Origin: Candidatus Pacearchaeota archaeon
Lineage (GTDB): Archaea; Nanobdellota; Nanobdellia; Pacearchaeales; GW2011-AR1
Reading direction: 5' to 3'
NCBI GenBank assembly: GCA_016186425.1
Contig: JACPLR010000009.1
Span: forward strand, 1-61,708
DNA: 61,708 bases
A program made the position numbers and the translations under genes. Positions within the stretch are counted from its first letter, which is position 1. Each line of letters begins with the position of its first letter. Under the pieces are notes generated by a model. The model was not told the origin of the DNA. It was given only the letters and a program-made list of their open reading frames with translations, and searched no databases. Below, piece by piece: positions 1,514-59,735 of this stretch.

Positions 1514-1600
1514 AACGAGTTACCATAATAATTCAAAAATTATGCTGAAAATATGTAATATCTTTCCCTGCTTATTTGCTGGAATTAGTAACTTTTTATT
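1514..1600 (+). repeat. Family-A intergenic repeat, deletion variant (5' arm plus hairpin 2/tail, no hairpin 1)
   Basis: aacgagttacc...attcaaaaattatgctgaaaatatgtaatatctttccctgcttatttgctgg aligns to the other A copies. Confidence 0.5.
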
Positions 1601-1626
1601 GATTTTTATAAGATATATGCAATTAA

Positions 1627-2646
1627 TTAAAAAATCTTCTTAAATAAAATCATTCCTTTGTAATACTCAAGCAGGTCAAGTGCCTTTTTATTTGGCTCTC
1701 CAGTAGATATAAATGCCAGCGGCAGTTTCAGCTTCTGCCCTAACTTCATTGCACTGGCTAAATCATTTTCAGTGATTGCCTTTTTCTCCTTGGCAATAGA
1801 TAAATAATTCTTTCCTTCAATGCTGACAACTGCAGAATAATCCTTTTTCTTGAATTTTTCATTTTCAAGAACCAAAATCTTATTTTCTTCCATTAATTTA
1901 AGAACATTTAAAACAAATTCCGGCTTTTCCTTTACCTTTATTTTTAATGTTTTATATTTTCTAACTCTTTTAATCTTAGGTTTTTCAGCTTCTCTTATTC
2001 CAACAGGCTTTTCTAAATCTAATTTTTCTTCAGCTTTCTCTTCCTTAATTTCAAAAATTGGCTCAATTTCTTTTACTCTCTCTACTGCTTGTTTAACTTC
2101 AAGAATCTCAGCACTTTTAACAGGTTGCGCAATAATTTCCTGAACTGCAATAATTTCTCTAGGTTTCTGGACTTTCGGGACATTCTGAACAAGAATTTTG
2201 CCTTGCTCAATAATTTCAATTGCCATTTGTTCGCTGGTTTTTATATATCTCCAATAAAGTTCTCCATTATGTTCAAAAGGAAAAGCAAAATCTTTAATGT
2301 TTCTCAATGCAACCCTCGCAGCAGGAGGAACTTTGTTATCCTGTAGAATCTGGTTTTCTTTTAAAAGATAAAAAATCTCTTTTTCTTTTCCAGAAAGATA
2401 ATTAGCAAACCTATCTAACTGAAATTCCTGGCCACGAAGAAAATAAACAGGTGAATTTCCAACCCTTAAACTACTTATTTTAATCTGCTTGTCAGAAAGC
2501 AGATCCGCAAGAAATGCTGAGGCAATCAAAGGGCTAAGTTTTATATGAGTGGCAATATGGACAGGCAAGCTGGGCCCCCTTATCTCAAGAAACTGCATTA
2601 TTCTATCCTTCTGAAGATTAAGATTATCGCCCCTATTTAATTCCAT
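1627..2646 (-). CDS. Hypothetical protein with N-terminal winged-helix-like domains, a Lys/Glu-rich linker and a C-terminal globular domain
   Basis: 339-aa ORF with good coding character. The N-terminus IMQFLEIRGPSLPVHIATHIKLSPLIASAFLADL looks wHTH-like. Function was not recognised. Confidence 0.55.
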   Translation of the reverse strand: MELNRGDNLNLQKDRIMQFLEIRGPSLPVHIATHIKLSPLIASAFLADLLSDKQIKISSLRVGNSPVYFLRGQEFQLDRFANYLSGKEKEIFYLLKENQILQDNKVPPAARVALRNIKDFAFPFEHNGELYWRYIKTSEQMAIEIIEQGKILVQNVPKVQKPREIIAVQEIIAQPVKSAEILEVKQAVERVKEIEPIFEIKEEKAEEKLDLEKPVGIREAEKPKIKRVRKYKTLKIKVKEKPEFVLNVLKLMEENKILVLENEKFKKKDYSAVVSIEGKNYLSIAKEKKAITENDLASAMKLGQKLKLPLAFISTGEPNKKALDLLEYYKGMILFKKIF

Positions 2647-2766
2647 GATTTGAATAGAAATGCAAGGATTATAAAGTTTATTATACTTTAAAATTATTTA
2701 GATAATATTTTATTATTTTTTAAACATATTATATTTATATATTCCCTTAAATCACTAAACTCAATA

Positions 2767-3140
2767 CAAAGAGTTAATGCCATTCAGGGATAACTATTGC
2801 CGCCATTAAATTAATTTAAATATCTAATAAATCATTTTAAATTTCTCCTAATAAAAGGAAAGTTTCATAAAGAAAAACATTACATTCTAAAGGGAAGCGT
2901 CATAAGAGAAACCGCAGGTGTCTTTTATGTTTCATAAGAAGAACCTTGGCTATTAAAAGGAAAGTTTGATAAAGAAAACCATTGGTTGTCTTTATTATTT
3001 AGTATGGTAATGATTCAGATTTTCAAAATTATTCTGAAATCACACCACATCTCTGCCTTATTTAAATATGCAAGTTTCTGATATTTTATTGCTCAACAGC
3101 TTAATACTCCAACAATTCTATAAGTTATATACAATAAATT
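2767..3140 (+). repeat. Family-A intergenic repeat, long copy whose hairpin 1 is split by a family-B array
   Basis: The 5' arm is gagttaatgccattcagggataactattgccgccattaaattaatttaaata. The left half of hairpin 1 (aaatttctcc) is at 2839. The element resumes at about 2996 with tatttagtatggtaatgattcagattttcaaaattattctgaaatcac... Confidence 0.6.
2853..2995 (+). repeat. Family-B hairpin repeat, tandem array of about 4 units
   Basis: Units include aaaggaaagtttcataaagaaaaac, aagggaagcgtcataagagaaaccgcaggtgtctttta and aaaggaaagtttgataaagaaaaccattggttgtctttat. Confidence 0.6.
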
Positions 3141-3232
3141 AAGGTTAAATTTCTTTAAAAAGAAAAATTTATTATAGTAATGATTCAAAATATCTTAATA
3201 AAATCTTCTTATATACAAACGTTTAATATTAC
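3141..3232 (+). repeat. Family-A intergenic repeat, partial copy
   Basis: Hairpin aaatttcttt-aaaa-agaaaaattt at 3147-3170 is followed by attatagtaatgattcaaaa. Confidence 0.45.
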
Positions 3233-3237
3233 ATTTT

Positions 3238-3277
3238 AAAAGGAAAGTTTAATAAAGAAAACCCTGGTTGTCTTTAT
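3238..3277 (+). repeat. Family-B hairpin repeat abutting a start codon
   Basis: aaaggaaagtttaataaagaaaaccctggttgtctttat ends 2 nt before the ATG at 3279. Confidence 0.55.
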
Positions 3278-3278
3278 A

Positions 3279-3519: not shown

Positions 3520-3655
3520 AAGTTACCGAAGTCCAATCATTAACCTGCTTCATCTTACTAATGACCAAGGTTAAATCTCTCGCAAAGAGAAATTTATTAT
3601 TGTATAGATTCAAGATCTTTTTGAAAATAATGCAATATCTCCCCCTAATTTTTCC
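3520..3655 (+). repeat. Family-A intergenic repeat
   Basis: Hairpin aaatctctc-gcaa-agagaaattt at 3573-3595 is followed by attgtatagattcaagatctttttgaaaataatgcaatatctcc. Confidence 0.6.
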
Positions 3656-3718
3656 ACAAGAGTTACTATTTTTATTTAATTTTTTATTCCGCATTTATCT
3701 AAATCATATAATCTAGAT

Positions 3719-7336: not shown

Positions 7337-7339
7337 TAA

Positions 7340-7413
7340 TAAAAAGAACCCACGGTTCTCTTTATGAACTCTCCCTTTTAAATGCCAAGGCTCTTCTTAT
7401 GGCATCTCCTTTA
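7340..7413 (-). repeat. Family-B hairpin repeat, 2 units in reverse orientation
   Basis: aaaaagaacccacggttctctttatgaactctccctttt plus gccaaggctcttcttatggcatctccttt. Confidence 0.55.
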
Positions 7414-7862: not shown

Positions 7863-7995
7863 AAAGTTAACATCATTTGAGCATAACCATTATTGCCATA
7901 AAATTAACTTAAACAGCTATAAATCATGCCAAATTTTTCACATAGAAAAATTTCTATTGTATTAATTCAAAAATATTCTTGAAAGATAATAATTT
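7863..7995 (+). repeat. Family-A intergenic repeat
   Basis: The 5' arm is aaagttaacatcatttgagcataaccattattgccataaaattaactt. Hairpin aaatttttc-acata-gaaaaattt lies at 7931-7953, followed by attgtattaattcaaaaatattcttgaaag. Confidence 0.6.
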
Positions 7996-8000: not shown

Positions 8001-9671
8001 TTAATTCTCTTTCACTCTTGTTTCAACTTCTTTTCCAAGTTTAAGAATATTCCCTCCATTAATTAAACTTTTTACAACCTCTTTTAGTTTGTTTATTTTA
8101 ACTCTAACCTGTTTAGTTGTATCTCTATCCCTGACAGTAACTGTATGGTCTTCAGGAGTTTTATCGTCTATTGTTATGCACATTGGAGTCCCTATTTCAT
8201 CATTTCTTGCATACCTTCTTCCGATGCTCCCGCTTTTATCGTAAATAACATTAAATTCTTCCTTCAGATCATTAACAATATCTTCTGAAATTTTTTCATA
8301 TTCTGGTTTTTTTATTATTGGAAAAACCGCTGCTTTTATTGGAGCAAGTTTTGCAGGAATTTTTAAAACAATATAACCTCTTTTTTTATCATAATTATAA
8401 GCTTTTGTTAAGACTGCAAGGAAAACTCTTTCCATCCCAAATGTCGGCTCAATAACTCTCGGAATAACTTTGCTCTTAGTTTTCTCGTCAAATATATCAA
8501 GATCTTGTTTGCTCTCTTTCTGATGTTGAGTTAAATCATACTGCCCTCTATTTGCAATTCCCGCAACTTCTTTAGAGCCAAAAGGATACATATAATCAAT
8601 GTCAAATGTTGCAGAACTATAATGGCTTAATTCATTTTTAGTATGTTCCCTTATTTTTATCTCATTCTTATTAAAACCAAGTAAATTAAACCAGATAACT
8701 TGTTCAGCCAACCAGTAAGCATGCCATTCATCTAACTTCCCTTTTTTTAGCATATCTCCAATACTCATTATTTTCAATTCCTCTTTTCCTTCCAACTGTG
8801 TTTCCGAATCCAATAATTTTACTTTTAAATTTAAATGCTTTTCATTTAGTAAACCACATTTAAAGTCATTAGGATGGATAAAAAATTCAAATTCTCCAAT
8901 GTTAAACTCCCTGCTCCTGAACAAAAAGTCTCTCGGGGCTATTTCATTTCTAAAGCATCTTCCAATTTGTGCAATTCCAAATGGAAGCTGCATTCTGGAA
9001 TTTTGTTGTATTAACTTAAAATCCATAAACATTGCTTGCGCTGTTTCTCCTCTTAAATAAGCGTCCATTGGATTCAAAGCTCCAATGCTTGTTTTAAACA
9101 TTAAATTAAATTCCCCTTTTACTTCATATTCTCCTCCACATTCACATTTTACTTTTCCAACTTCAGATTTATCAATTTTCGTTGCCTTTCCGCATTTTTT
9201 GCACACAACAGCAATATCTGAAAAACTTGTTAAATGCCCCGAAGCTTTCCATGTCTGTGGATGAGATATAATGCTTGCTTCAATTCCAACCATGTTATCT
9301 CTTTGCCTTACAAAAAAATTCCACCAGTCATTTTTGATATTATTAAACAATTCAACTCCCAAAGGCCCGAAATCCCAAAATCCTGCCAATCCTCCGTAAA
9401 TATCGCTTGACCTAAAAATAAATCCCTTTGTCTTGCAAAAATTAGCAAGCTCATCAATGGTTATTTCTTTTTTTTCGGCATCTTTATCGGAAATTGTTTT
9501 ATCTTCATATTTGTTTTCTTCATGTTTTAATTCTTCCAATTTTCTTTGCGCTTCTTCCAATGTTTTGCCAGCATAACTAATTGTCTTTGATTTTATTTTA
9601 TTTCCTTCCCTAATGCTCTTCCTAACATAATAATACTCTCCTCCAGAAATTTTCTTTTTTACAATATACAT
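8001..9671 (-). CDS. glyS: Glycine--tRNA ligase (archaeal/eukaryal dimeric type) with an extra N-terminal module of about 65 aa
   Basis: KGFIFRSSDIYGGLAGFWDFGPLGVELFNNIKNDWW, plus class II core motifs and the anticodon-binding C-terminus. Confidence 0.9.
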   Translation of the reverse strand: MYIVKKKISGGEYYYVRKSIREGNKIKSKTISYAGKTLEEAQRKLEELKHEENKYEDKTISDKDAEKKEITIDELANFCKTKGFIFRSSDIYGGLAGFWDFGPLGVELFNNIKNDWWNFFVRQRDNMVGIEASIISHPQTWKASGHLTSFSDIAVVCKKCGKATKIDKSEVGKVKCECGGEYEVKGEFNLMFKTSIGALNPMDAYLRGETAQAMFMDFKLIQQNSRMQLPFGIAQIGRCFRNEIAPRDFLFRSREFNIGEFEFFIHPNDFKCGLLNEKHLNLKVKLLDSETQLEGKEELKIMSIGDMLKKGKLDEWHAYWLAEQVIWFNLLGFNKNEIKIREHTKNELSHYSSATFDIDYMYPFGSKEVAGIANRGQYDLTQHQKESKQDLDIFDEKTKSKVIPRVIEPTFGMERVFLAVLTKAYNYDKKRGYIVLKIPAKLAPIKAAVFPIIKKPEYEKISEDIVNDLKEEFNVIYDKSGSIGRRYARNDEIGTPMCITIDDKTPEDHTVTVRDRDTTKQVRVKINKLKEVVKSLINGGNILKLGKEVETRVKEN

Positions 9672-9984
9672 AAATTACGCACTACATTTCTATATATAAA
9701 ACTTGCTCTAAATATAAAAATCAAAAACAACTTCTAACAGGTATTGTCAACTTATCAGGACATGCCTATTTTTTAATAGATAACCAAAATTAACTTAATT
9801 ATGTAAAAATTATAATTGTATTCAGTTTCAGAAATTACGACAATGCATTTACTTAATTCATAACATAATGAATAACAAAAATTTAAATAATTCTATTTTC
9901 AAGTATTATTTATTTCCATATCACGCTAACCTGACAGTGCCCTTCTAACATTAACCTTTTAAACTTTGTAATCTCTTGAAAAAT

Positions 9985-10737
9985 ATGGCTAATAGTTATG
10001 AGTTAGAATTAAATGAAATTATAAAATTATCTCCAACAGCAAGGGCTTTAAGATATAATACAAAAGATCTTATAAACTTCAAGCCAGGACAATTTTTTAT
10101 GGTGGAATTTTTTCTTAAAAAAGAAAACGGCTTTGATATTAAAGAAAACAAATCTGAAAAACAAAGGCGGGCCTTTTCTATATCATCTTCTCCAAATTCG
10201 CAATATATTGAGCTTACAGTTAAAAAAACACCAAATCCTTTTGTATCAGACTATCTTATTAGCTATACTAAAAAAGGTGAAAGAGCAATATTTACAGGAC
10301 CATACGGGCATTTCATCTTTGATTCGCAACTAACTAAAAAAAATCTTATCTTTCTTGCTGCAGGTTCCGGGATTGCTCCATTAATGAGCATACTAAGGTA
10401 TATAGATGAAACAAAACCTCAGGTTAATATTCATCTTATCTACTCAAATAAAACAGAGAATGAAATTCTTTGGAAGGAGGAAATTGAAAACATTTCAAAA
10501 AGAAATAAAAATATATTATTTACTTTTACATTAACTCAAAATGAAGAAAATACTTTATGGACCGGAAAAAGGGGAAGAATTAATAAAAACATGATATCAG
10601 AAATAATTTCTAACTGGAAACAAGATGAAATAGATTGCTATATATGCGGCCCGCTTGAATTCACAAGGGAGATGGAAGAAATATTGAAAATGGAAGGCAT
10701 ACCGAACAGCAACATAAAATACGAGATTTATGAATAA
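9985..10737 (+). CDS. FNR-family FAD/NAD(P)-binding oxidoreductase
   Basis: RAFSISSSP (the RxYS flavin motif) and the NAD(P) site LAAGSGIAPLMS...CYICGP. No C-terminal Fe-S Cys cluster. An alternative TTG start is at 9976. Confidence 0.65.
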   Translation: MANSYELELNEIIKLSPTARALRYNTKDLINFKPGQFFMVEFFLKKENGFDIKENKSEKQRRAFSISSSPNSQYIELTVKKTPNPFVSDYLISYTKKGERAIFTGPYGHFIFDSQLTKKNLIFLAAGSGIAPLMSILRYIDETKPQVNIHLIYSNKTENEILWKEEIENISKRNKNILFTFTLTQNEENTLWTGKRGRINKNMISEIISNWKQDEIDCYICGPLEFTREMEEILKMEGIPNSNIKYEIYE

Positions 10738-10789
10738 ATTACCAAACATACTATTAATGATAAGCCCTAAATATTTTTTAATTTAAATA

Positions 10790-10905
10790 ATTATCACATA
10801 CTTTAAATTAAATGAAATTTTTCCTAAAAGAGAAATTTAATATGACAATAATTCAAGAATAATTTTGAAATATCACAACAATTTTCCCTTATTTTTAGCA
10901 AGATC
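10790..10905 (+). repeat. Family-A intergenic repeat
   Basis: Hairpin aaatttttc-ctaaaa-gagaaattt at 10815-10838 is followed by aatatgacaataattcaagaataattttgaaatatcacaac. Confidence 0.6.
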
Positions 10906-10945
10906 TAGCAGGTTTAACTTATTTTTCCATAGATTATATTAATAA

Positions 10946-12520
10946 TTATCTATTAAACAATCTATTTAGGATATATCCAAATTCTCCATTCTTAACTAAA
11001 TATCCGAGTCTTTTAAGTTGTTGTGTTTTTGTCTCAGAATATTCAACTAAAGAATAAACCTTACTGAATTTGTCTGGATATTTTGTCTCAATTCCTCTGT
11101 CAAGACAAAATTTAATCAAGGCGTTAGGGACAAATCTTCTCCCAATTATGTAATAATAATTAACAAATGGCTTTTGTTCTGCAGTTTCTTTAGTTGCAAC
11201 TTGAGTCCTAACGTCTCTATTAACGCTTGCAATATCATCTTTTGTAATAAATCCTCTTTCTAAGGCCATTTCAGTTATATCAAAATCAAGGTAATAAGCC
11301 ATATTATTCCTGTTCGTTTTAAATGGTTTTGGCATTTGCAATAAAAACTGAATGCCTTCTTTCAATGTTTCAGGGGTTTCAAATTCGCTAATAATTGTAT
11401 CAAAGCGCAGTTCAGCATTTGGAGCATATTCACGAATAATACGTGCTGCCCGGAGAAGATCTTCATTAGTCTCAGATCTTTTATATATCTCCCTCCTTAT
11501 TTTTTCAGATCCTGTCTGCATGCCTAAAAAAATATATCTCAATCCCGCGCTGGCAAGAGCTTGTATCATTTCATGATCCTTAATTAAGGAAGAATGACCA
11601 TAACAAAAGAAAGGCCTGTTTATATACTGTCTATACTTGATTGAAAAATCCTTAACCCATTCCTTATCCATAGTAAATATATTATCCCAAAAATTAATAG
11701 TCTCTATTTTTGGATAAAGATTAATAGCTTGGCGTAATTCTTCTATTACATTATCAACGCTTCTTCTTCTAAGATACTTAAAATTAAATTCTCTGTTTAA
11801 AACATGCTCAAAACAAAAGGTGCATCTCATTGGGCAGCCTCTCGAAGTTGTTAAATTATACCCATATTTATAGTGGGGAATTGGATTTTCTCTGTAAACA
11901 ATGCTTTTAATAAGATAAAATTTATTTTTATCAGAATAATCCGGAAATGGCAAAGAATCCAGATTTTCTATAAGCGGCCTGTATCCGTTTTTGTAAATTT
12001 TACCCTTCTTATCTTTAACCCACAGATTTTTAACACGAAGATAACTTTTTCCTTTTCTCATTAAGTCAAATAGCTCAAGCAAGGCATCTTCTGCCTCTCC
12101 CCTTATTATAATGTTTGCATGATCCAAGCATCTCACAGGATCAATCATTGGCTGAATGCCTCCCCACATTATTGGGCAGGAAAAATGTTTCTTGAGTTCT
12201 TTAGTTATATCTGCACAATCCCAGAAACTCATTGACTGGACAGACATTCCTATAACATCAGGATTCAATTCCTTAAGGAGTTTTACTAATGCAACAATTT
12301 CTTCTTTAGTTGGGGGATCTCCGCCAAGAAAGTTTAATTCCCTAAAAAAAACAGAATAAACCTTATAACCTGATTTATCTAAGAAAGAATGTAATCCTGC
12401 GGAAGTCATGTTTAATGTTCCGTTAAGATGAACAAAAACCGCAGTAAAATCATTTTTTTCTTTAAGCTTAGCTTTTTTAAGAGATTTACCATTTATCATA
12501 CCTTTTTTATTAATAACCAT
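10946..12520 (-). CDS. B12-binding-domain radical SAM protein
   Basis: N-terminal Rossmann-like cobalamin-binding region. The radical SAM cluster motif is TSRGCPMRCTFCFEH (CxxxCxxC). Confidence 0.8.
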   Translation of the reverse strand: MVINKKGMINGKSLKKAKLKEKNDFTAVFVHLNGTLNMTSAGLHSFLDKSGYKVYSVFFRELNFLGGDPPTKEEIVALVKLLKELNPDVIGMSVQSMSFWDCADITKELKKHFSCPIMWGGIQPMIDPVRCLDHANIIIRGEAEDALLELFDLMRKGKSYLRVKNLWVKDKKGKIYKNGYRPLIENLDSLPFPDYSDKNKFYLIKSIVYRENPIPHYKYGYNLTTSRGCPMRCTFCFEHVLNREFNFKYLRRRSVDNVIEELRQAINLYPKIETINFWDNIFTMDKEWVKDFSIKYRQYINRPFFCYGHSSLIKDHEMIQALASAGLRYIFLGMQTGSEKIRREIYKRSETNEDLLRAARIIREYAPNAELRFDTIISEFETPETLKEGIQFLLQMPKPFKTNRNNMAYYLDFDITEMALERGFITKDDIASVNRDVRTQVATKETAEQKPFVNYYYIIGRRFVPNALIKFCLDRGIETKYPDKFSKVYSLVEYSETKTQQLKRLGYLVKNGEFGYILNRLFNR

Positions 12521-12603
12521 TGACTAGAGTGATAAGTATTCTTTAAAAATGTTATGGGGTTAAAGTCTACAAATCAAAATCCTTATTCAATGAATAAGTA
12601 AAC

Positions 12604-12810
12604 AACGAGTTACCAAAACCCAATATTAAAACCCTAATTTAAATAGCTATCAAATCATTTTAAATTTCTCCCAATGAGAAATTTAGGATAGTGTAGATTC
12701 AAGAATAATTTTGAAATCATGCAATATCTTTGCCTCATTTTAATATGTAATCTGCTGATATTTTATCAATTAACAGCTCAATACTTTAATATTATATAAT
12801 TTATATACAA
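12604..12810 (+). repeat. Family-A intergenic repeat, full-length copy
   Basis: aacgagttaccaaaac...aatttaaatagctatcaaatcatttt, then hairpin aaatttctc-ccaat-gagaaattt at 12662-12684, then gattcaagaataattttgaaatcatgcaatatctttgcctcattttaatatgtaatctgctgatattttatc. Confidence 0.7.
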
Positions 12811-12842
12811 AAATTTAAATAACAAAGACGTTACTTTTAACT

Positions 12843-13097
12843 ATGATAAAAAAGTATAAAATCATTTACGATCGTGAAGGTTGTACTAAATTCGGGGGAT
12901 GTGCAGCAGCATCCAAGCATTTCGATATAGCCAGAGATAAAAAAGCAGATTTAGTTGGAGGCAAGAAAAACAAGGAAGGTTTATGGGAACTGGAAATAAG
13001 CGAGGAAGATTACGCAAAGAATAAGGACGCTGCAGAGATTTGCCCAGCGAAGGTTATCCATATAATTGACCTAGAAACTGGAGAGGAGATTATATAA
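12843..13097 (+). CDS. Small ferredoxin-like protein (putative)
   Basis: YDREGCTKFGGCAAA ... AAEICPAKVI resembles the Cys pattern of a single-cluster ferredoxin. Low certainty. Confidence 0.45.
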   Translation: MIKKYKIIYDREGCTKFGGCAAASKHFDIARDKKADLVGGKKNKEGLWELEISEEDYAKNKDAAEICPAKVIHIIDLETGEEII

Positions 13098-13099
13098 AT

Positions 13100-13325
13100 T
13101 AAAAGAAGTTGCCAAATTAATTAGATAAAAATTACCTATCAAATTATCAATTTAAATAGCTATCAAATTATTTTAAATTTCTCCCAATGAGAAATTTAGA
13201 GCCATATGGATTCAAGAATATTTTGAAATCATACCATATCCTTGTCTGATTTTAATGAGTAAGTTTCTGATTTTTATTATTTATCATTTAGATATTAGAA
13301 GATTCTATAAAGTATCTATAACAAT
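13100..13325 (+). repeat. Family-A intergenic repeat, full-length copy
   Basis: aagaagttgccaaatt...aatttaaatagctatcaaattatttt, then hairpin aaatttctc-ccaat-gagaaattt at 13175-13197, then ggattcaagaatattttgaaatcataccatatccttgtctgattttaatgagtaagtttctgattttt. Confidence 0.7.
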
Positions 13326-13334
13326 TAAGCTTAA

Positions 13335-13730
13335 TCAAATCTCCAGCGGATCATCTTGAACATATTTAACGCCTTTTTTAATTGCAATTTCTGCTTTGCA
13401 TAACTCTATACCCATATCTGCAGCATGCTGCAAGCTAGAAATCATACCTTCTCTTATTAAAGTATTAACTATCTCAAGCGCTGTTTTGCCCCTTACCTCA
13501 GCCTTTAATTTATTGTCTGGAAAAGTACAATATCCTACCCCTATTTCATTAGTTTCAGGATAAATTTTAATAAGAAAATAACCTTTAGGATCCATTTTCC
13601 AATCTTTAATACGATCATATTTTGCAGGTATAATTGGCAATTCACCCTCTTTAGAAATATCCCACCATCGTCCTTTAATTACTTCCTCCTTTTGCTCATT
13701 ATTTTCAGATATAATATCTTCTTCAGCCAT
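13335..13730 (-). CDS. DUF4346-like protein (MtrA/pterin-associated small domain family)
   Basis: WKMDPKGYFLIKIYPETNEIGVGYC...GKTALEIVNTLIREGMISSLQHAADMGIELCKAEIAIKKGVKYVQDDPL recalls the DUF4346 pattern. Confidence 0.5.
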   Translation of the reverse strand: MAEEDIISENNEQKEEVIKGRWWDISKEGELPIIPAKYDRIKDWKMDPKGYFLIKIYPETNEIGVGYCTFPDNKLKAEVRGKTALEIVNTLIREGMISSLQHAADMGIELCKAEIAIKKGVKYVQDDPLEI

Positions 13731-13799
13731 TATCGTTTAACCAATGGCCAGTATATAAAATTTATTATTGTAACAATTCAAAAAAAATAAGGCATAAAA

Positions 13800-17375: not shown

Positions 17376-17544
17376 ATGTTTTTAAATATTCCTTCAATGT
17401 ATAAAAAGAAAATAAATAATCCATAACTTAGAAGAGGTTAAAACTTCTAACATAAATATTAACATATTAAACTAATAAATAATACTCTCCCTAATTTTTA
17501 CACAAGTTATTAAACAGCACATTAACATAAAACATATTTAATCG

Positions 17545-17650
17545 CCAATAAATCATCTTAAATTTCTCCTAAAAGAGAAATTGAGTATTGTAGTGATTCA
17601 AAATTGTTCTGAAAATATGCTATATCTCTATCTGATTTTTACATCAATTA
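17545..17650 (+). repeat. Family-A intergenic repeat
   Basis: Hairpin aaatttctc-ctaaaa-gagaaatt at 17560-17583 is followed by gagtattgtagtgattcaaaattgttctgaaaatatgctatatctctatctgattttt. Confidence 0.65.
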
Positions 17651-19708: not shown

Positions 19709-19885
19709 AAAACGGGTTAATGCCCTTTAGGCATAACTATTGTTGCCATTAAGTTAATTTAAATATCCAATAGCTCATGTTAAATTTCTCTAAACGAGAA
19801 ATTTAGTATTGTAATGATTCAAGATTTTGAAAACATGCCATATCCTTGCCTCATTTATAATAAGAAAGCTGCTGAAGTTAGGTAT
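19709..19885 (+). repeat. Family-A intergenic repeat, full-length copy
   Basis: aaaacgggttaatgccctttaggcataactattgttgccattaagttaatttaaatatcc, then hairpin aaatttctc-taaac-gagaaattt at 19782-19804, then agtattgtaatgattcaagattttgaaaacatgccatatccttgcctcattt. Confidence 0.7.
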
Positions 19886-19990
19886 ATTAAATAAAGACTG
19901 CTTTTATTTTTATAAGTTATATGCTAAAAATTGTTCCATATCTGAGCTTCAGAAAGCTAAGCTCTTCCGAAAAAGACTAAAGGCAATAAT

Positions 19991-25446: not shown

Positions 25447-25559
25447 AATTTATATAAGAATAAATGCTTTAAATAACTTACATAATCAACCTATAATCTT
25501 AATTAAACTATAAAAATAAATAAATTAAAACTGCTTAAAATATAAAATTAACATCTCAA

Positions 25560-25690
25560 ACTAATAAAATCATGTTAAATTTCTCACAAAAGAGAAATTT
25601 AGTGTTATAGTGATTCAAAATTGTTCTGAAATCATGCAATATCCTTTCCTAATTTAAATGGGTAAGATACTGAAACTTATAATTTTAACA
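25560..25690 (+). repeat. Family-A intergenic repeat
   Basis: Hairpin aaatttctc-acaaaa-gagaaattt at 25577-25600 is followed by agtgttatagtgattcaaaattgttctgaaatcatgcaatatcctttcctaattt. Confidence 0.65.
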
Positions 25691-25861
25691 TAACTAATCC
25701 ACTTAAAAACTAGTAAAGCTATTAGAGTATTTTAAAAAATGTTCTTGAATCATTACAAGACCTCTACTTAATTTATATAATCAATCAACTCTAGTTTATC
25801 TTGCTAATTTTAAGGTATTTCCAGATTAAATCCACTAACTTTAGTTGGACTATTGGCCATT

Positions 25862-25935
25862 AAAGGAAGTTTCATAAAAGAAAACCTTGGCACCTAAAAG
25901 GAGATGTCATAAGAAGAACCTTGGTTCTTTTTATT
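25862..25935 (+). repeat. Family-B hairpin repeat, 2 units
   Basis: aaaggaagtttcataaaagaaaaccttggcacc plus aaaaggagatgtcataagaagaaccttggttctttttat. Confidence 0.6.
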
Positions 25936-27538: not shown

Positions 27539-27541
27539 AAA

Positions 27542-31760: not shown

Positions 31761-31864
31761 TGAGTTAGAAAAGAAAAGTGCATCAAAATGAAGCTTCCTA
31801 CAACAATAGGATATAATAATTATCTAAACCTAATATTTAATTTTATTATTTATTTGAAAACATA

Positions 31865-31930
31865 CAATAAAAATTTTTCATTTAGAAAAATTTAGCCTTA
31901 TTCAATATTCATCAACTTTTAATCTATAAC
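31865..31930 (+). repeat. Family-A intergenic repeat, short or degenerate copy
   Basis: Hairpin aaatttttc-attta-gaaaaattt at 31871-31893 is followed by agccttattcaatattcatc. Confidence 0.45.
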
Positions 31931-33003: not shown

Positions 33004-33100
33004 TTTAGAAATCATGCTATAATTTTACCTACTTTATCAGCTTGAAGTGCTAGATTTACCAGTTTTAATTAATAAATATAAACTTAATCTAATAATTTTA
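32998..33100 (+). repeat. Family-A intergenic repeat, deletion variant (tail part)
   Basis: aaatttagaaatcatgctataattttacctactttatcagcttgaagtgctagatttaccagttttaattaat closely matches 57825-57890. Confidence 0.45.
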
Positions 33101-33334: not shown

Positions 33335-33424
33335 TTTTTAGAGAGAATTAATTTTACCATAATATAAATTTAAAACATATCAAACCTAAATCATCTAAAT
33401 CAAGATTAATAAATATTAAATAAG

Positions 33425-33490
33425 GCATAAATTTTCTTAATATGAAAATTTATTTATTGTAATGATTCAAGCATATAATAAAAACTTAAG
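33425..33490 (+). repeat. Family-A intergenic repeat, short copy
   Basis: Hairpin aaattttc-ttaatat-gaaaattt at 33429-33451 is followed by atttattgtaatgattcaagc. Confidence 0.5.
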
Positions 33491-44815: not shown

Positions 44816-44920
44816 TGGCCCTGCCAGGAATTGAACCTGGGTCCTATCCACGTCAAGGATATGTCCTTTATGGGTTTATTAACCTTAATTAAATAATACT
44901 GACCATTAGACTACAGGGCC
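44816..44920 (-). tRNA. tRNA-Val (anticodon GAC) with a 33-nt non-canonical intron in the D loop
   Basis: On the minus strand: GGCCCTG-TA-GTCT-AATGGTCA[gtattatttaattaaggttaataaacccataaa]GGAC-A-TATCC-TTGACGT-GGATA-GGAC-CCAGG-TTCAATT-CCTGG-CAGGGCC-A. Removing 33 nt leaves a 72-nt cloverleaf. Confidence 0.85.
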
Positions 44921-45954
44921 GTTTTAAATGGTAACTTAAGATCTTTATATAAATCTTGCGACATATAATTAGGAACTTCCTTAAGATAAATTGTTTTATT
45001 GTTATAAGCACGATTATAAAACCTAATGATATGTTTGTGATTTGAACTTCCAACAATTTTAAAATATTTCACTACATTTTCCCATTTATTTGTACCAACT
45101 TCTTTTCCAGTAAAATAAGTAAAAATACCTATATCTTTCCCAATTTTATAAACTTGATCAAGTAAAATAGGGTTATGGGAATAAAATTGAACACAAAATT
45201 GACTTCCTCCTCTTCCTCTTCTTGAAACAGATCCGTCAGTATCAACAAGTCCCCTTAAACAAGCAATAGCTAGTTTTTGATTATCAAAAATAATTTGTGG
45301 GATACAAGACTTATTTCTTATTTTATTGCCATATTTCAAACCAAATTCTTTATTTAAAAAAGAACATAATTTATTCGAATAAACGGTTAGGTAAGAGGTA
45401 TTATGAATTTTATTTTTCTTAATTGAAGATGAAATCCCAAATAATTCTTCAACTAATTTGTTTATATAAATAAAATAATTTAGATCGTAACGATAATCTC
45501 CAGAAATCCTCACAAAGTATTTTGTCATCGTTCCATCTCCTAAATAAGTTCCTATGAACTCTGCTAATTTTTCATTAACTTCCGGCAATAAGATCTCTTT
45601 TGAATTTGAATAGGAAGAATGTTTAATTGCTTGTCTTCTCCATTCCTTAATCTTGTCTGGATATTTTCTTTCCAAAGACTTAATCCCTTTTTTTCCACCA
45701 ATTGAAGCACCCCAATTAGCTGACAAATAGGTAACTTCAAGAGATTCTTTATCGATTAATAAATATTCTATGAGATAATTAAATAAACTTTCTGGAATTA
45801 AAAATTTTTCTTGAGCATATTCCTTAATTGTTGAATATGGAATTTTTAGGCTAATGCTTAATTTTCTAAGAGAACCTATTCTAGAAGCTACATTAAACAA
45901 CAATTCTCTTTGCTTACCTTTATTTAACTTAACTCTTCTTTCATGTTTATTCAT
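44911..45954 (-). CDS. Free-standing LAGLIDADG homing-endonuclease-like protein with an N-terminal HTH region
   Basis: LAGLIDADG motifs are LAEFIGTYLGDGT and IACLRGLVDTDGS. The N-terminal HTH is LRKLSISLKIPYSTIKEYAQ. The last 10 nt overlap the 5' end of tRNA-Val. Confidence 0.75.
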   Translation of the reverse strand: MNKHERRVKLNKGKQRELLFNVASRIGSLRKLSISLKIPYSTIKEYAQEKFLIPESLFNYLIEYLLIDKESLEVTYLSANWGASIGGKKGIKSLERKYPDKIKEWRRQAIKHSSYSNSKEILLPEVNEKLAEFIGTYLGDGTMTKYFVRISGDYRYDLNYFIYINKLVEELFGISSSIKKNKIHNTSYLTVYSNKLCSFLNKEFGLKYGNKIRNKSCIPQIIFDNQKLAIACLRGLVDTDGSVSRRGRGGSQFCVQFYSHNPILLDQVYKIGKDIGIFTYFTGKEVGTNKWENVVKYFKIVGSSNHKHIIRFYNRAYNNKTIYLKEVPNYMSQDLYKDLKLPFKTAL

Positions 45955-46097: not shown

Positions 46098-46133
46098 CCT
46101 CTGGTTGCGGGATTCATAAAAACCCGCTGGAGG
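46098..46133 (+). promoter_or_regulatory. 5'-leader hairpin that includes the SD of rpl44e
   Basis: In cctctggttgcgggattcataaaaacccgctggagg, GCGGG pairs with CCCGC and CCTC with GAGG. An alternative fold is AAAAACC-cgctgga-GGTTTTT. The GGAGG at 46129-46133 is 9 nt from the GTG start. Confidence 0.3.
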
Positions 46134-46142
46134 TTTTTATCT

Positions 46143-47925: not shown

Positions 47926-48130
47926 AACGAGTTAAAATCACTTCATTAATGGTAAAAAGGTTTAATTTAAACAAATATAGATTATTTTAAATTTCTTCTA
48001 TTAAAAGGAGATGTCATAAGAAGAACCTTGGTTCTTTTTATTATTTAGGATTGTAATGATTCAAGATTTTGAAAATACTGTAATATTTCTCCATGATTTA
48101 TCAGCTAGAACTAGTAGTTTTACCTAATCC
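47926..48130 (+). repeat. Family-A intergenic repeat with a family-B unit inserted in hairpin 1
   Basis: aaacgagttaaaatc...attattttaaatttcttcta[B]ttatttaggattgtaatgattcaagattttgaaaatactgtaatatttctccatgatttatcagctagaactag. Confidence 0.6.
48003..48045 (+). repeat. Family-B hairpin repeat
   Basis: aaaaggagatgtcataagaagaaccttggttctttttat. Confidence 0.6.
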
Positions 48131-48520: not shown

Positions 48521-48609
48521 AAATAAACAATGGTAAGGAATTATATAAACCTTATGACATTGCAGAATTAATAAAAATAATCCTGCTAAACTTAATTAAT
48601 AAACCTGAA

Positions 48610-48725
48610 AATCATACCAAATTTTCCTAAATGAAAAATTTTCATTATAGTGATTCAAAAAGGTTATTCTTGAATCTAGACTATATCTTTAAATAATTTA
48701 CTTGCTAAAATTACTAATTTTAATT
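48610..48725 (+). repeat. Family-A intergenic repeat
   Basis: Hairpin aaattttc-ctaaat-gaaaaatttt at 48619-48641 is followed by cattatagtgattcaaaaaggttattcttgaatctagactatatcttt. Confidence 0.6.
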
Positions 48726-49343: not shown

Positions 49344-49439
49344 CTCACCAAGTAGAAAAAGGCCTGATTTAAATGGATTATGGTTCTAGGAAACAACCAT
49401 AATTAAGGATGAATGAATATCAATAGTTCAAGCTAAAAA

Positions 49440-49545
49440 ATAAGGCAAAATCATTATAGTATCTTCAGAATATTTTCTAAACACACCATATCTCCTCCTG
49501 ATTTATTATACTCAAGTTACTAAAATTTAATTACCATAGCTATAT
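49440..49545 (+). repeat. Family-A intergenic repeat, degenerate copy
   Basis: aaatcattatagtatcttcagaatattttctaaacacaccatatctcctcctgatttatt aligns to hairpin 2 and the tail of the other copies. Confidence 0.35.
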
Positions 49546-54419: not shown

Positions 54420-54483
54420 ATTATCTAAATTTTCACACCTCCTTTCATTTGATCTATTTCCATAATTTAACTTACTCTCTCCT

Positions 54484-54522
54484 AAAAGGAGATATCATAA
54501 GAAGAACCTTGGTTCTTTTTAT
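54484..54522 (+). repeat. Family-B hairpin repeat
   Basis: aaaaggagatatcataagaagaaccttggttctttttat. Confidence 0.55.
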
Positions 54523-54565
54523 TTTTAAAGAAAAGATATATATATATTTCGGTTCTAGATTTTTC

Positions 54566-55201: not shown

Positions 55202-55239
55202 GTTAATACTCTTCAGGCGTAACTTTTATACCTAAAATT

Positions 55240-55375
55240 AATTTAAATATCAAATAAATTAAGGTAAAATTTCTCTCTAATGAGAAATTTATTATGGCTT
55301 TCAAAATGTTCTTGAATCTATGCAATAACTCTCTATAACTTATCCGATAGAGCTACTAAATTTTCAGATAACCTG
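55240..55375 (+). repeat. Family-A intergenic repeat
   Basis: ttaatttaaatatcaaataaatt, then hairpin aaatttctc-tctaat-gagaaattt at 55267-55290, then attatggctttcaaaatgttcttgaatctatgcaataactctc. Confidence 0.65.
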
Positions 55376-55454
55376 CTTAACTTAATATTTTTACTACCAT
55401 CCATATTTTCCTCTCAATTAACTTTATAAATCTTCAAAGGCTTTCAAATCCAAT

Positions 55455-55611
55455 AGCCCCGTCGTCCAGCGGTCAAATTTTTCCTGATAAATTCAGAAAG
55501 AAGACTAGGGATACAAGCCTTTGGCGAGGGAGTTTGCGAGGCAAATAGTATAATATCGCGAGCGAACTTCGGAGAGAGCTTGGGACCCAGGTTCGAATCC
55601 TGGCGGGGCTA
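55455..55611 (+). tRNA. tRNA-Gln (anticodon TTG) with two introns: about 32 nt in the D loop, and 52 nt at the canonical 37/38 site
   Basis: AGCCCCG-TC-GTCC-AGCGGTCAA[a ttttt cctgataaattcagaaagaagactag]GGAT-A-CAAGC-CTTTGG[cgagggag...cggagag]A-GCTTG-GGAC-CCAGG-TTCGAAT-CCTGG-CGGGGCT-A. The A1:U72 pair is typical of archaeal tRNA-Gln. 73+32+52=157 nt. Confidence 0.8.
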
Positions 55612-55679
55612 TTTTTTATCAAAAAATAGCCTTATTATCTAGAAATAGTAAAAATACCAACTTTACTAATTAAGCTAAT

Positions 55680-55790
55680 AAATCATACAAAATTTTTCTT
55701 AAATGAAAAATTTCATTACATATTTCAAAATTATTCTTGAATCATGCCATGATTTATCAATTTTACAAGATTAACTTCTTAATTTTTTAT
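55680..55790 (+). repeat. Family-A intergenic repeat
   Basis: Hairpin aaatttttc-ttaaat-gaaaaattt at 55688-55711 is followed by cattacatatttcaaaattattcttgaatcatgccatgatttatc. Confidence 0.6.
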
Positions 55791-57570: not shown

Positions 57571-57573
57571 AAA

Positions 57574-57650
57574 TAAAAAGAACCCATGGTTCTTCTTATG
57601 ACATCTCCTTTCTCATGCTACGATTTTCTTTATGAGTTTTCCTTTTAATA
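57574..57650 (-). repeat. Family-B hairpin repeat, 2 units in reverse orientation, directly after a stop codon
   Basis: aaaaagaacccatggttcttcttatgacatctccttt plus ctacgattttctttatgagttttcctttt. Confidence 0.6.
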
Positions 57651-57915
57651 GAACATTTTGAAACCATGTCATATCTCCACATAATTTATCAATGAAAGTT
57701 ACTGAGTTTACTAGTTTTAATTTATCCAATTTACTTAATTAGTTTTATTGACCTTTAGTATATTCAAGACCCAAAACTTGCTTATCTTAATAATTTGTTT
57801 GTTACATTTTCAAAACTTAATTCTGCATGCCATATTTTTACCTACTTTATCAGCTAGCGCTAGTAAATTTACTAGTTTTAATTAATCAATATAAAATTAA
57901 CTTAATAACCTAAAA
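57650..57915 (+). repeat. Family-A intergenic repeat, two tandem partial copies
   Basis: gaacattttgaaaccatgtcatatctccacataatttatc...taataatttgtttgttacatttt, then caaaacttaattctgcatgccatatttttacctactttatcagctagcgctagtaaatttactag. Confidence 0.45.
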
Positions 57916-57987
57916 TTGCTTAATAATTTGTTCTATAGATTTCAAAATAATAGTATACTTTAAAAACCTCTCAAATATTCTATTTCT

Positions 57988-58692
57988 ATGGTAAAATATA
58001 ATGAAGGAGATATAATACTTTGTGAAGTAAAAGATGTAGTTAAAACAACTGTTTTTGTAGAAACTCTTGATGGAATGAAAGGAAGCATAGTTTTCAGTGA
58101 GGTAGCTCCTGGAAGAATAAGAAATATAAGAGATTATGTTGTTCCAAAAAAAATAGTTGCCTGTAAAATTCTGCATATAGCTTATGATCATTTATTTTTA
58201 AGTTTAAGAAGAGTTAAAGACAAAGAAAAAAAAGAAGCTCTAGAAATATATAAAAAAGAAAGGAGCCTAGAAAGTTTTATCAAAAAGCTTCTTGGAAATA
58301 AAGCTGGGGAAATAATAAGCAAAATAAGGTCTGAAAATTCCCTTTCATTGGTAGAATTTTTTGAAAGCGCAAAGCAAAACTCAAAACTTTCTGAAAAATA
58401 CTTCTCAAAAAGCGAAATTGAAAAGCTCACAAGTATTTTAACAGAAAAAAAGGAAAAAGAGAAAGAAATAAAAAAAGAATTTATCTTAAGTTGCAATCAG
58501 CCAGATGGGATAATAAGAATAAAAAAAATGCTTTCACCTCACGATAGCATAACTTATCTTGGAAGTTCAAAATTCATGATAAAGGCAAAATCTATTGATT
58601 TAAAGCAGGCAGATTCTAAGCTTAATAAAATTCTTGAAACAATTGAAAAAGAATCAAAAAAGGAAAAATGTGAGTTTGCTATGAAAAAATAA
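57988..58692 (+). CDS. Translation initiation factor 2 alpha subunit (aIF2-alpha)
   Basis: N-terminal S1 domain GDIILCEVKDVVKTTVFVETLDGMKGSIVFSEVAPGRIRNIRDYVVPKKIVACKIL...LSLRRV. Confidence 0.8.
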   Translation: MVKYNEGDIILCEVKDVVKTTVFVETLDGMKGSIVFSEVAPGRIRNIRDYVVPKKIVACKILHIAYDHLFLSLRRVKDKEKKEALEIYKKERSLESFIKKLLGNKAGEIISKIRSENSLSLVEFFESAKQNSKLSEKYFSKSEIEKLTSILTEKKEKEKEIKKEFILSCNQPDGIIRIKKMLSPHDSITYLGSSKFMIKAKSIDLKQADSKLNKILETIEKESKKEKCEFAMKK

Positions 58693-58695
58693 TCT

Positions 58696-59067
58696 TTATC
58701 GGCTTTTATATCCAAACTTTTTATCATAAGTCGGATGGTCAATAATATCAAGAACAAAGGCTACTACTTCTATTTTGTCCCCTTTTAATGTATAAAGCAT
58801 TCTCCAAAATTGAGAAAGCTCAACTCTAAACAAATTAATTGCTCCATATTTATTTTTATATTCTTCAGGAATTAAATTCTTAGCAATCGGATCTCCGTAA
58901 AAAGGATTATTTATTATAAATTCAATCTTTTGTTTTATTGATCTTAAAAGCTGAATTTCATCTGAACTTTCCTTTCCTGAACTTATTTGCCTTCCAACTA
59001 TTTCATTTAATCTCTTAAAAGATTCATCTGCATCTCCTAAAAGAACTATGCGAATAAACTTGTTCAT
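58696..59067 (-). CDS. RelE/ParE-superfamily toxin-like protein
   Basis: NPFYGDPIAKNLIPEEY...NLFRVELSQFWRMLYTLKGDKIEVVAFVLDIIDHPTYDKKFG. Confidence 0.6.
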   Translation of the reverse strand: MNKFIRIVLLGDADESFKRLNEIVGRQISSGKESSDEIQLLRSIKQKIEFIINNPFYGDPIAKNLIPEEYKNKYGAINLFRVELSQFWRMLYTLKGDKIEVVAFVLDIIDHPTYDKKFGYKSR

Positions 59068-59360
59068 ATTTCAGTTCCTTTTTTTACCCATTCTCTAAGA
59101 ATTTTGCTATCAGTATAAACCCAGCTAATACCTCTAATGCCCGATAAGATCTTTCCACTTTTTTCTAAATATTCAAGAATTATCATTAAAGTGTTATGAT
59201 TAACTTGTCGAGGTAATTTTCTTTTTAATTCCGCAATTGTTATCACACTTTCATCCATATTTTTCAGAGTTTCCTCTACCATAAGAACAGTATTTAATGT
59301 AGGCCAGTGTACCGGTTTTTCATTAAATTTCATTTGATTAAACTTAGCTTTCTGTGACAT
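59064..59360 (-). CDS. Putative cognate antitoxin (wHTH-like)
   Basis: 98-aa ORF that overlaps the toxin start by 4 nt (ATGA). ITIAELKRKLPRQVNHNTLMIILEYLEKSGKI looks wHTH-like. Confidence 0.4.
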   Translation of the reverse strand: MSQKAKFNQMKFNEKPVHWPTLNTVLMVEETLKNMDESVITIAELKRKLPRQVNHNTLMIILEYLEKSGKILSGIRGISWVYTDSKILREWVKKGTEI

Positions 59361-59487
59361 TTTAGTATCTTTTAGTTATATATTTATAACTATTTATTAC
59401 AAGTTAGTATTTAAACCTTTTGATAGAAAAACATAAATATCTAACTTGAATTAATTAAGAAAATAAACAATCGAATATAAATATAAA

Positions 59488-59622
59488 ATGCTCTTAAAAA
59501 AGTGTTCAAATAGATCCTGTAATACTTACACTCTTAAACCTATTTGCCCTAAATGCAGCTCAAAAACAAAAGAAGCTGGTGAGAAATTCAGGGAGAGGTT
59601 TGTGAGAAATAAGAAAGAATAA
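59488..59622 (+). CDS. nop10: H/ACA RNP protein Nop10 (44 aa; too short for the ORF track)
   Basis: Translation MLLKKCSNRSCNTYTLKPICPKCSSKTKEAGEKFRERFVRNKKE fits the KKC..C..YTLK.ICPKC..KT Nop10 zinc-ribbon pattern. Confidence 0.6.
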   Translation: MLLKKCSNRSCNTYTLKPICPKCSSKTKEAGEKFRERFVRNKKE

Positions 59623-59624
59623 AA

Positions 59625-59735
59625 TTATTTTTGAATCATTACTATAACTTTATCTTATTTTAATGTGAAAGCTACTGATATTTTAAATCTAAACTTACTT
59701 AATCTAATAATTTGTTTGCTACATTTTCAAAACAA
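59625..59735 (+). repeat. Family-A intergenic repeat, partial (hairpin 2 plus tail)
   Basis: aaaattatttttgaatcattactataactttatcttattttaatgtgaaagctactgatattttaaatc...taataatttgtttgctacattttcaaaac. Confidence 0.45.

Follow-up and report, generated by a model that had tools for sequence, protein, structure and literature searches.

The locus and its repeat family

The window analysed in this study is the whole of a stretch of 61,708 nucleotides (nt) of contig JACPLR010000009.1 (assembly GCA_016186425.1, Candidatus Pacearchaeota archaeon). The window is archaeal, with 30% G+C, and carries intron-containing tRNA genes and ordinary archaeal housekeeping genes, namely those for tRNA-splicing endonuclease, Alba, TFB, GINS, SRP54, FtsY, aminoacyl-tRNA synthetase, ribosomal proteins S8e, S3Ae and S15, and eIF2-alpha. 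Its intergenic spacers are populated by a repeat with two hairpins, hereafter family A, which is the subject of this study.

A preliminary description of the window had reported a dense family of about 20 copies, and our searches bore this out. An exact hairpin-1 pattern matched five times in the window and never in shuffled sequences, and a degenerate 32-nt tail pattern matched six times where none was expected. Iterated nhmmer searches with a profile of five copies gave 19-20 matches, all on the + strand apart from palindromic self-hits. The copies given earlier as examples were recovered by the profile at 12616-12774, 13130-13279, 19727-19889, 25545-25689 and 55214-55368. With separate profiles for the modules, 22 clusters (copies or fragments) were found in the 61.7 kb (Table 1). 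All of them lie in intergenic spacers, and their core sequence amounts to 2,367 nt, or 3.8% of the window. Family A as a whole makes up about 4-6% of the contig and about one fifth of its intergenic DNA. The density is about one copy per 3 kb, fairly regular, in a streamlined genome.

The copies had been described as strictly co-oriented. This holds for 21 of the 22 clusters, which lie on the + strand (p ~1e-5, two-sided binomial); the remaining one, a fragment on the minus strand at 31850-31905, had been missed. The 16 copy-bearing spacers comprise 6 convergent, 3 divergent and 7 tandem ones. The orientation of the copies is therefore independent of the neighbouring genes, as had been claimed.

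The distribution of family A was examined in public-genome and metagenome loci, labelled L018-L160, which were compared with the window. A search with the specific tail pattern gave 23 metagenome loci carrying family A, six of which are syntenic with the window at 80-96% identity. A scan of public genomes with the bare hairpin-1 palindrome was unspecific and returned 119 mostly irrelevant loci, the informative ones being L089 and L018 (a Pacearchaeota metagenome-assembled genome, MAG). The only public genome found to carry the repeat was the MAG Candidatus Pacearchaeota archaeon RIFCSPHIGHO2_02_FULL_31_29, so that the range is narrow, 23 metagenome loci and one MAG. Scans of viral contigs were empty, and no copy was seen in 47 kb of other DPANN loci sampled through homologues of an IS4/IS5 transposase. 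No dispersed repeat family of this kind in DPANN archaea turned up in the literature searched.

Anatomy of the repeat

The unit is about 200-270 bp long. A full unit starts at the 5' end with a conserved oligonucleotide, AAC(G/A)AGTTA(A/C) or (A/G)TTACC, and finishes with an AT-rich 3' end. The modules follow in the order optional arm, leader AAATCATGTT, hairpin 1, hairpin 2, tail CATGCCATATCCTTGCCTAATTT..AAGTTnCTGA and AT-rich 3' end. The five parts described previously (5' arm, hairpin 1, spacer, hairpin 2 in two variants, and tail) could be seen in the alignments. The long 5' arm and its TTTAAATA box, which had been taken as parts of the full copy, do exist, though in only part of the copies; in one subfamily the arm contains a weak hairpin, GTTAATGCC..GGCATAAC, together with the box. 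The tail is conserved and non-palindromic, and its core is preserved in diverged copies. T-runs follow many tails, not all. By eye, no consistent open reading frame (ORF) was found in the tail on either strand.

The two main hairpins lie side by side in the centre of the unit and differ in sequence (AAATTTCTC versus GATTCAAGA). Only for hairpin 1 is the helix well supported. In 25 distinct copies, taken from the window and the metagenomes, it is 95% paired, and both sides have changed in 4 of the 10 pairs, at one of which CG and UA each occur 11 times. Compensatory substitutions, which had been suggested as a check on the stems, were thus found in hairpin 1, the loop of which varies in length and sequence. 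Hairpin 2 is 61% paired, and its core stem of 7-9 bp is kept mainly by sequence conservation. RNAalifold over the whole core recovered hairpin 1 only. Hairpin 2 occurs in either orientation relative to the rest of the unit. The two forms noted earlier are therefore real, but the variant is not a separate hairpin; it is the same imperfect palindrome, flipped. Because of the compensatory changes in hairpin 1 and the non-random orientation, family A is more than randomly decaying junk.

Family A is a mosaic and not a uniform element. Hairpin 2 and tail occur alone, leader and hairpin 1 occur alone, and a tail unit and a full unit occur in tandem. The copy at 13130 shares with that at 12616 a block of 45 nt, from the TATA-like box to hairpin 1, with one mismatch, and the flanks of the two differ. 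A metagenome copy, L131_843, joins the arm of the 12616 copy to the 3' part of the 13130 copy in an unrelated gene context. We had considered this copy as a recombinational deletion of the ferredoxin gene between direct copies. This reading was dropped, because the flanking genes are unrelated (not syntenic), and L131_843 therefore shows only module shuffling. Paralogous copies within the contig are 60-85% identical with no near-identical pair, and the copies are therefore old.

A second repeat, family B, was also found in the window. It is about 45 nt long and reads in gene sense AAAAAGAACCnnnnGGTTCTTCTTATGACATCTCCTTTT, a hairpin followed by a U-rich stretch. Copies lie in one orientation at 7338-7377, 32928-32967 and 57572-57611, and in the other at 2951-3004, 25890-25943, 47997-48050 and 54478-54531. 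They stand mostly just downstream of genes, oriented with the gene, and resemble a 3'-end or terminator module. A family-B-like hairpin was also seen in the related locus L142 (10725-10895, -), inside an intron of about 90 nt at position 37/38 of a tRNA-Arg(TCT) gene. The two families meet in several places: family B is nested in or fused to hairpin 1 in three family A copies, and the L142 ortholog of the copy at 17531..17644 holds two family B insertions.

Copies are insertions in compact spacers

The cluster of genes for an aminoacyl-tRNA synthetase, an FNR-like oxidoreductase, a radical SAM protein, ferredoxin and a PterinBD protein is conserved in three contigs of more distant Nanoarchaeota (L159, L154 and L160), all of which are free of family A. 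The spacers of the cluster measure 42, 0, 105 and 46 nt in L159, against 314, 208, 322 and 237 nt in the window. Three of the four window spacers hold a recognised copy, and the fourth holds a degenerate copy-like stretch below the search threshold; all four have the same orientation. At the empty site in L159 two stop codons abut, TATGAATAA/TTATTTTCC (the slash marks the junction). The corresponding filled site in the window, at 10738-10945, reads TATGAATAA/ATTACC...TTAATAA/TTATC, with (A)ATAA at both junctions. Similarly, the filled site at 55202-55417, GAG-TTAA-TACTC...CTCAA-TTAA-CTTT, corresponds to an empty ACTAA/TTAACTTT in L121, with TTAA repeated. The lengths of the insertions as bounded by the empty sites are 208 nt and 216 nt, respectively. 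As to the target-site duplications that had been proposed for inspection, these two filled and empty sites do show AT-rich repeats of 4-5 bp, for which microhomology is also a possible origin.

Comparison with closer relatives showed further turnover. The copies at 55202-55417 and 55647-55750 are absent from L121, and a tail unit found in both L130 and L142 has no counterpart in the window. The tail of the unit at 57809..57881 is of another subtype than the tail of its ortholog in L121 and L137. The copy at 49437-49530 lacks exactly 21 nt, namely hairpin 1, relative to the full ortholog in L121; from the alignment, this loss would be the signature of slippage across a DNA hairpin. The minus-strand fragment at 31850-31905 belongs to some 235 nt that the relative L127 lacks. 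In orthologous spacers of syntenic relatives, the copies keep their orientation.

The copies of family A have thus been inserted into spacers that were compact in the ancestor. Their make-up is mosaic, many of them are truncated, a second repeat uses them as sites, and hairpins are lost from them by slippage-type deletion. The preliminary description had considered passive DNA of the miniature inverted-repeat transposable element (MITE) or REP type the less likely explanation. The differences in presence and absence, the mosaicism and the truncations point the other way, to mobile DNA.

The four genes at 9704-13752 (FNR-like oxidoreductase, B12-binding radical SAM protein, ferredoxin and PterinBD-DUF4346 protein) are missing in the close relative L142 and conserved in distant Nanoarchaeota. 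Since this block of 4 kb has a copy after each gene and the copies are co-oriented, we considered whether family A consists of integron-like recombination sites flanking mobile gene cassettes. This reading was rejected, because the cluster is a conserved functional one in the distant relatives L159, L154 and L160, which lack the copies. Moreover, most intervals between copies hold 2-10 housekeeping genes (SRP54, FtsY, TFB, ribosomal proteins and tRNAs), no integrase was found in the scanned ORFs, and the apparent cassette deletion in L131_843 is not syntenic. Recombination sites of this type are hardly credible as an explanation.

The same comparison bears on a possible role of the copies as REP-like elements acting in cis on transcripts, either as terminators or 3'-end stabilisers or, through their AT-rich ends, as promoters. 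Such a role would be compatible with a mobile origin. About one quarter of spacers are expected to be convergent when genes are randomly oriented, and here 6 of the 16 copy-bearing spacers are. T-runs behind the tail, TATA-like motifs at the 3' end about 40 nt ahead of some downstream start codons, and the behaviour of family B as a gene-oriented 3' hairpin in shared spacers could be explained in the same way. The orientation of family A, however, ignores the flanking genes, unlike that of family B, and relatives that lack family A express those genes as well. At least once, what looks like a promoter motif at the 3' side is a native promoter outside the element: TATATAC...AAATTTAAATAAC, 3' of the copy at 12604..12810, is that of the ferredoxin gene and is also present in L159. 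We therefore regard it as unlikely that the copies are kept for the sake of gene expression.

DNA element or RNA gene

The family had been proposed to consist of small-RNA genes with transcripts starting at hairpin 1. On this proposal transcription of each copy would start from the TTTAAATA box, pass both hairpins and the tail, and stop at the T-run, which would give an RNA of about 100-130 nt. The TATA-like box ahead of part of the copies, the T-runs behind many tails, the compensatory changes in hairpin 1, the tail core kept in diverged copies, the several G-U pairs of standard hairpin 2 on the + strand, and the presence of copies in spacers whatever the neighbouring genes are all in line with it. 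The box, however, is missing in roughly 40% of the copies. Where found, it starts 24 nt upstream of hairpin 1, while a comparable box at most of the seven tRNA genes of the contig has its start 30-36 nt upstream of the mature 5' end (about 40 nt in tRNA-Ala). A transcript would therefore begin inside the 5' arm of hairpin 1.

Folding gave a similar picture. The copies with standard hairpin 2 fold better on the + strand and the flipped ones on the - strand, with totals of 12 and 13. The z-scores range from -2.4 to +0.4, weakly better than shuffled sequences and no better on + than on -. Counts of G-U versus A-C showed no strand preference in either hairpin. Rfam 15 on the window gave only tRNAs above the gathering threshold, and three copies searched at E up to 10 gave nothing meaningful, so that not even a sub-threshold match was obtained. 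Many copies lack hairpin 1 or the tail, the sequence turns over at orthologous sites, and rightward (+) transcription would run head-on to the inferred direction of the fork. Readings as C/D-box or H/ACA RNA or as introns with a BHB motif were dropped on inspection and general knowledge, since TGATTC and CTGA make no k-turn pair and the bulges do not fit.

The covariation in hairpin 1 (4 of 10 pairs) is explained equally well by a hairpin in DNA, and hairpin 2, being flipped in part of the copies, shows no strand preference. On sequence grounds, the balance leans towards a DNA element rather than an RNA gene. The proposal of small-RNA genes was thus not supported, and it now seems quite improbable to us.

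Orientation follows strand composition

In order to relate the single orientation to the chromosome, skews at third codon positions were calculated on the coding strand for window ORFs of at least 100 codons, and + genes were compared with - genes. The AT3 skew was +0.17 in + genes and -0.07 in - genes (p = 1.7e-6), and the GC3 skew was +0.06 and +0.30, respectively (p = 4.7e-5). The difference persists at four-fold degenerate sites. Since the silent-site skews differ between + and - genes, the + strand is A+C-rich and the - strand G+T-rich, whatever the direction of the gene. Richness in G+T usually marks the leading strand. About 66% of the coding DNA is on the - strand. The whole contig lies probably in one replichore, and the "+" form of family A would then be on the putative lagging strand.

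A strand-skew term was also estimated for every locus of at least 5 kb. Across 11 independent loci, which are short and include some copies in tandem, orientation index and skew index were correlated (Spearman 0.73, p = 0.010). Of the 33 copies outside the window, 24 are on the A+C-rich strand (p = 0.014). Overwhelmingly, the family A strand lies on the A+C-rich chromosome strand. Tabulated against skew, as had been suggested, orientation is thus non-random and follows strand composition. In non-syntenic related contigs orientation is mostly uniform per locus, and mixing occurs in some of them, mainly where the skew is weak or conflicting. On the limited evidence of these loci, this is how the copies would be arranged if the replication fork determined their orientation.

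It is worth noting that the same pattern could be produced by an element that the host has domesticated. In that case family A would be a polar chromosomal element and not merely a parasite, with folded single-stranded hairpin-plus-tail signals on one replication template strand. Possible roles would be lagging-strand processing, sensing of fork direction, signals for a DNA translocase or for repair, and recombination hot spots. A variant of this reading is mobilisation by an archaeal single-strand DNA transposition system that has not yet been described. The tracking of strand composition, the dense and fairly regular spacing, the uneven conservation with pairing maintained in hairpin 1, and the retention of old, diverged copies would agree with such a polar element. 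Relatives with the same genes, however, manage without it, and close relatives differ by gain, loss, truncation and shuffling of copies. Known polar signals such as Chi, KOPS and Ter are short, and no candidate protein was found among the ORFs scanned. Even taken together with its variant, we consider this reading distinctly improbable.

Nature of family A and comparison with known systems

Family A is an undescribed repeat of a known general kind. The explanation that we favour, giving it about an even chance, is a lineage-specific, non-autonomous mobile DNA repeat of MITE, PATE or BOX type, which occupies the intergenic spacers of one Pacearchaeota-like clade and depends on the replication fork for its insertion or its survival. 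The hairpins would act as DNA: folded as single strands or as cruciforms, they would be recognised by an enzyme whose gene lies elsewhere, and that enzyme would move, or would have moved, the units. Because insertion or survival after insertion would be coupled to the fork, one orientation per replichore would be fixed. Individual copies may secondarily provide their neighbours with AT-rich promoter-like or terminator-like sequence.

Some bacterial repeats are comparable in architecture. BOX of Streptococcus pneumoniae and the NIME/Correia-type repeats of Neisseria are modular intergenic repeats with stem-loops, present in hundreds of copies per small genome and without a transposase of their own. 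Family A resembles them in its sub-elements in variable combinations, its intergenic location, its predicted stem-loops and the lack of its own transposase; they differ from it in belonging to bacteria and in having no sequence relationship with it. Clear terminal inverted repeats and a TA duplication are features of the Correia elements. To our knowledge, a replichore-wide single orientation is known neither for BOX nor for NIME/Correia.

The PATEs (palindrome-associated transposable elements) of Haloquadratum walsbyi, which among archaeal repeats come closest to family A, are derived from IS200/IS605 elements and are heterogeneous, without terminal inverted repeats or target duplications (PMC3119063). 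Like family A they are archaeal, too short to encode a transposase, free of terminal inverted repeats, palindromic and divided into divergent families; both undergo repeat-mediated internal deletion (of the core, in PATEs) and are frequent targets of other small repeats (PMC3119063). The palindromes of PATEs are near-terminal and mutually similar, whereas the hairpins of family A are adjacent, central and unlike (PMC3119063). Two junctions of family A show possible duplications of 4-5 bp, which PATEs lack, and there is no sequence similarity between the two. Transposition of IS200/IS605 elements takes place on single strands at the replication fork, a mechanism that would also account for the replication-linked single orientation of family A (PMC5027513). 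Such an orientation relative to the fork is found here (21:1 in the window and rho 0.73 across loci), the direction of replication being inferred. Many families of insertion sequences, DDE types included, show a family-specific orientation bias relative to replication (PMC3971601).

REP/BIME repeats with their RAYT enzymes (PMC3333891), and REPINs (PMC3116915), are like family A imperfect extragenic palindromes, often located at the 3' ends of genes and in convergent spacers, and they are thought to be processed as single-stranded hairpins by an HUH/Y1 enzyme (PMC3333891; PMC3116915). REPs, however, measure 20-40 nt and usually form inverted pairs, whereas family A measures 100-270 nt, is in direct orientation and has a long non-palindromic tail, with no RAYT seen. 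Classical MITEs of DDE transposases, such as IS4/IS5 derivatives, are similar to family A in size, intergenic site, copy number and a possible AT-rich duplication of 4-5 bp. The contig does carry an IS4/IS5-family transposase, but family A has neither convincing terminal inverted repeats nor ends in common with it. By structure, family A is thus neither an IS200/IS605 derivative, in which adjacent, dissimilar hairpins and possible duplications would be out of place, nor a classical MITE, in which terminal inverted repeats would be required. We therefore filed it, outside both groups, as a non-autonomous intergenic hairpin repeat.

Several facts weigh against the fork-coupled mobile repeat that we favour. 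First, no transposase, Y1/HUH enzyme, TnpB, integrase or reverse transcriptase was linked to the copies among about 60 ORFs of the window and its relatives, a search space of 61.7 kb plus about 200 kb. The ORFs flanked by copies in relatives encode TBP, Rpb6, PCMT, a PIN protein and a nuclease, and no ORF with copies on its flanks is RAYT-like. The sole transposase of the window (DDE_Tnp_1, IS4/IS5, 29651-30655) has no family A copy nearby and no ends shared with it. Second, a search of four full copies for inverted repeats brought up hairpin 1 and weak AT-only similarity of 8-10 nt between the two TATA-like boxes, with nothing convincing at the termini. The hairpins are also unlike the ends of IS200/IS605, in that they have different sequences and stand next to each other instead of near the ends. 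The duplications at the two junctions are so short and AT-rich that they could be microhomology, the other sites being too diverged to read. Third, orientation is mixed in 4-5 related loci (L125, L128, L132 and L139, with one inverted pair in L131), and the direction of replication was derived from composition and gene-strand bias, not from a mapped origin. Finally, there are no near-identical copies and so no sign of recent activity, and the persistence of the copies in a streamlined genome, together with the uneven conservation (hairpin 1 and tail core), could reflect a host function.

DPANN genomes are very small and gene-dense, and here a single mosaic hairpin repeat fills about one fifth of the intergenic DNA of a contig. 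If the coupling to replication is true genome-wide, family A would offer a built-in replichore marker for uncultivated archaea without known origins. It would also indicate single-strand or fork-coupled mobilisation in a lineage for which none has been described, and it would account for variation in spacer length and local rearrangements between close populations. For annotation, a warning is in order: the TATA-like boxes and hairpins of such spacers are repeat-borne.

Table 1. Copies and fragments of family A in the window
Position	Strand	Content and setting	Score or basis
1458..1601	+	Degenerate hairpin 1, AACGAGTTAC oligonucleotide, hairpin 2, tail; overlaps 3' end of ORF 1166-1513	nhmmer E=2.9e-15
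2784..3097	+	Full copy with long 5' arm; hairpin 1 interrupted or replaced by family B hairpin element at ~2852-2970	
3129..3191	+	Partial: leader, hairpin 1, 5' half of hairpin 2	E=4.6e-8
3566..3674	+	Hairpin 1, hairpin 2, tail	E=2.3e-22
7877..7987	+	5' arm, hairpin 1 (TTC/GAA variant), hairpin 2, no tail; abuts stop of gene 8001-9671	
10738..10945	+	Complete insertion unit, core 10796-10915; fills the convergent spacer between FNR-like and radical-SAM genes	
12604..12810	+	Full copy, core 12616-12774; divergent spacer upstream of ferredoxin gene	E=6e-32
13100..13328	+	Full copy, core 13130-13279; convergent spacer	
17531..17644	+	Hairpin 1, hairpin 2, short tail	
19712..19925	+	Full: long 5' arm (hairpin 0, GTTAATGCC..GGCATAAC), TATA-like box, hairpin 1, hairpin 2, tail, 3' TATAAGTTATAT motif	E=2.6e-33
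25545..25790	+	Full core 25545-25689 without TATA-like box, then weak hairpin 2 and tail fragment 25735-25790	
31850..31905	-	Sole reverse fragment: leader, hairpin 1 (AAATTTTTC..GAAAAATTT), 5' half of hairpin 2	Hairpin-module profile E=3.7e-6
33005..33052	+	Hairpin 2/tail unit alone	Tail-module profile E=3e-7
33409..33470	+	Leader, hairpin 1, 5' half of hairpin 2; 75 nt past tRNA gene, abuts gene 33491-34123	
47956..48125	+	Hairpin 1 fused to family B element (47997-48050), then hairpin 2 and type-2 tail	
48602..48724	+	Hairpin 1, flipped hairpin 2, tail	
49437..49530	+	Leader, hairpin 2 and tail kept; hairpin 1 (21 nt) lost	Comparison with L121
55202..55417	+	Complete insertion unit, core 55214-55368, flipped hairpin 2; between kinase-like gene and tRNA gene	
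55647..55750	+	Leader, hairpin 1, hairpin 2, partial tail; 35 nt past tRNA gene	
57650..57720	+	Hairpin 2/tail unit; orthologous unit in L121, L122 and L137	
57809..57881	+	Second hairpin 2/tail unit of the spacer shared with 57650..57720	
59621..59694	+	Hairpin 2/tail unit	

Other features of the window

The IS4/IS5-family DDE transposase gene lies, together with several small ORFs, in a block of about 4 kb (26778-30706) that is absent from the syntenic locus L127. The transposase has more than 1,500 homologues, many of them from MAGs of Pacearchaeota or Nanoarchaeota.

A third short repeat, of 39 nt, was found in the window spacer at 46102-46140 and, at 92-95% identity, in non-orthologous spacers of L121 (2636-2674) and L127 (1010-1048). 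The spacing between the FtsY and SRP54 genes is about 530 nt in L121 and 64 nt in the window.

The tRNA-Arg(TCT) gene of the window (24162-24236, -), intron-less here, is preceded by an ORF with a LAGLIDADG domain (23415-24155), which is absent from L142, where the same tRNA gene carries the intron mentioned above. A second LAGLIDADG-domain ORF, of 347 aa (44911-45954, -), adjoins an intron-containing tRNA gene. The tRNA gene at 55456-55611 (+), about 156 nt long and conserved in L121, apparently has more than one intron; the 5' end of its acceptor stem and its T-arm and 3' end are clear, and it was missed by ARAGORN and by Rfam at the gathering threshold. Near the left end of the window, an ORF of 130 aa (456-848, +) matches only the N-terminal part of the Rad51/RadA ATPase and may be a split or truncated radA.

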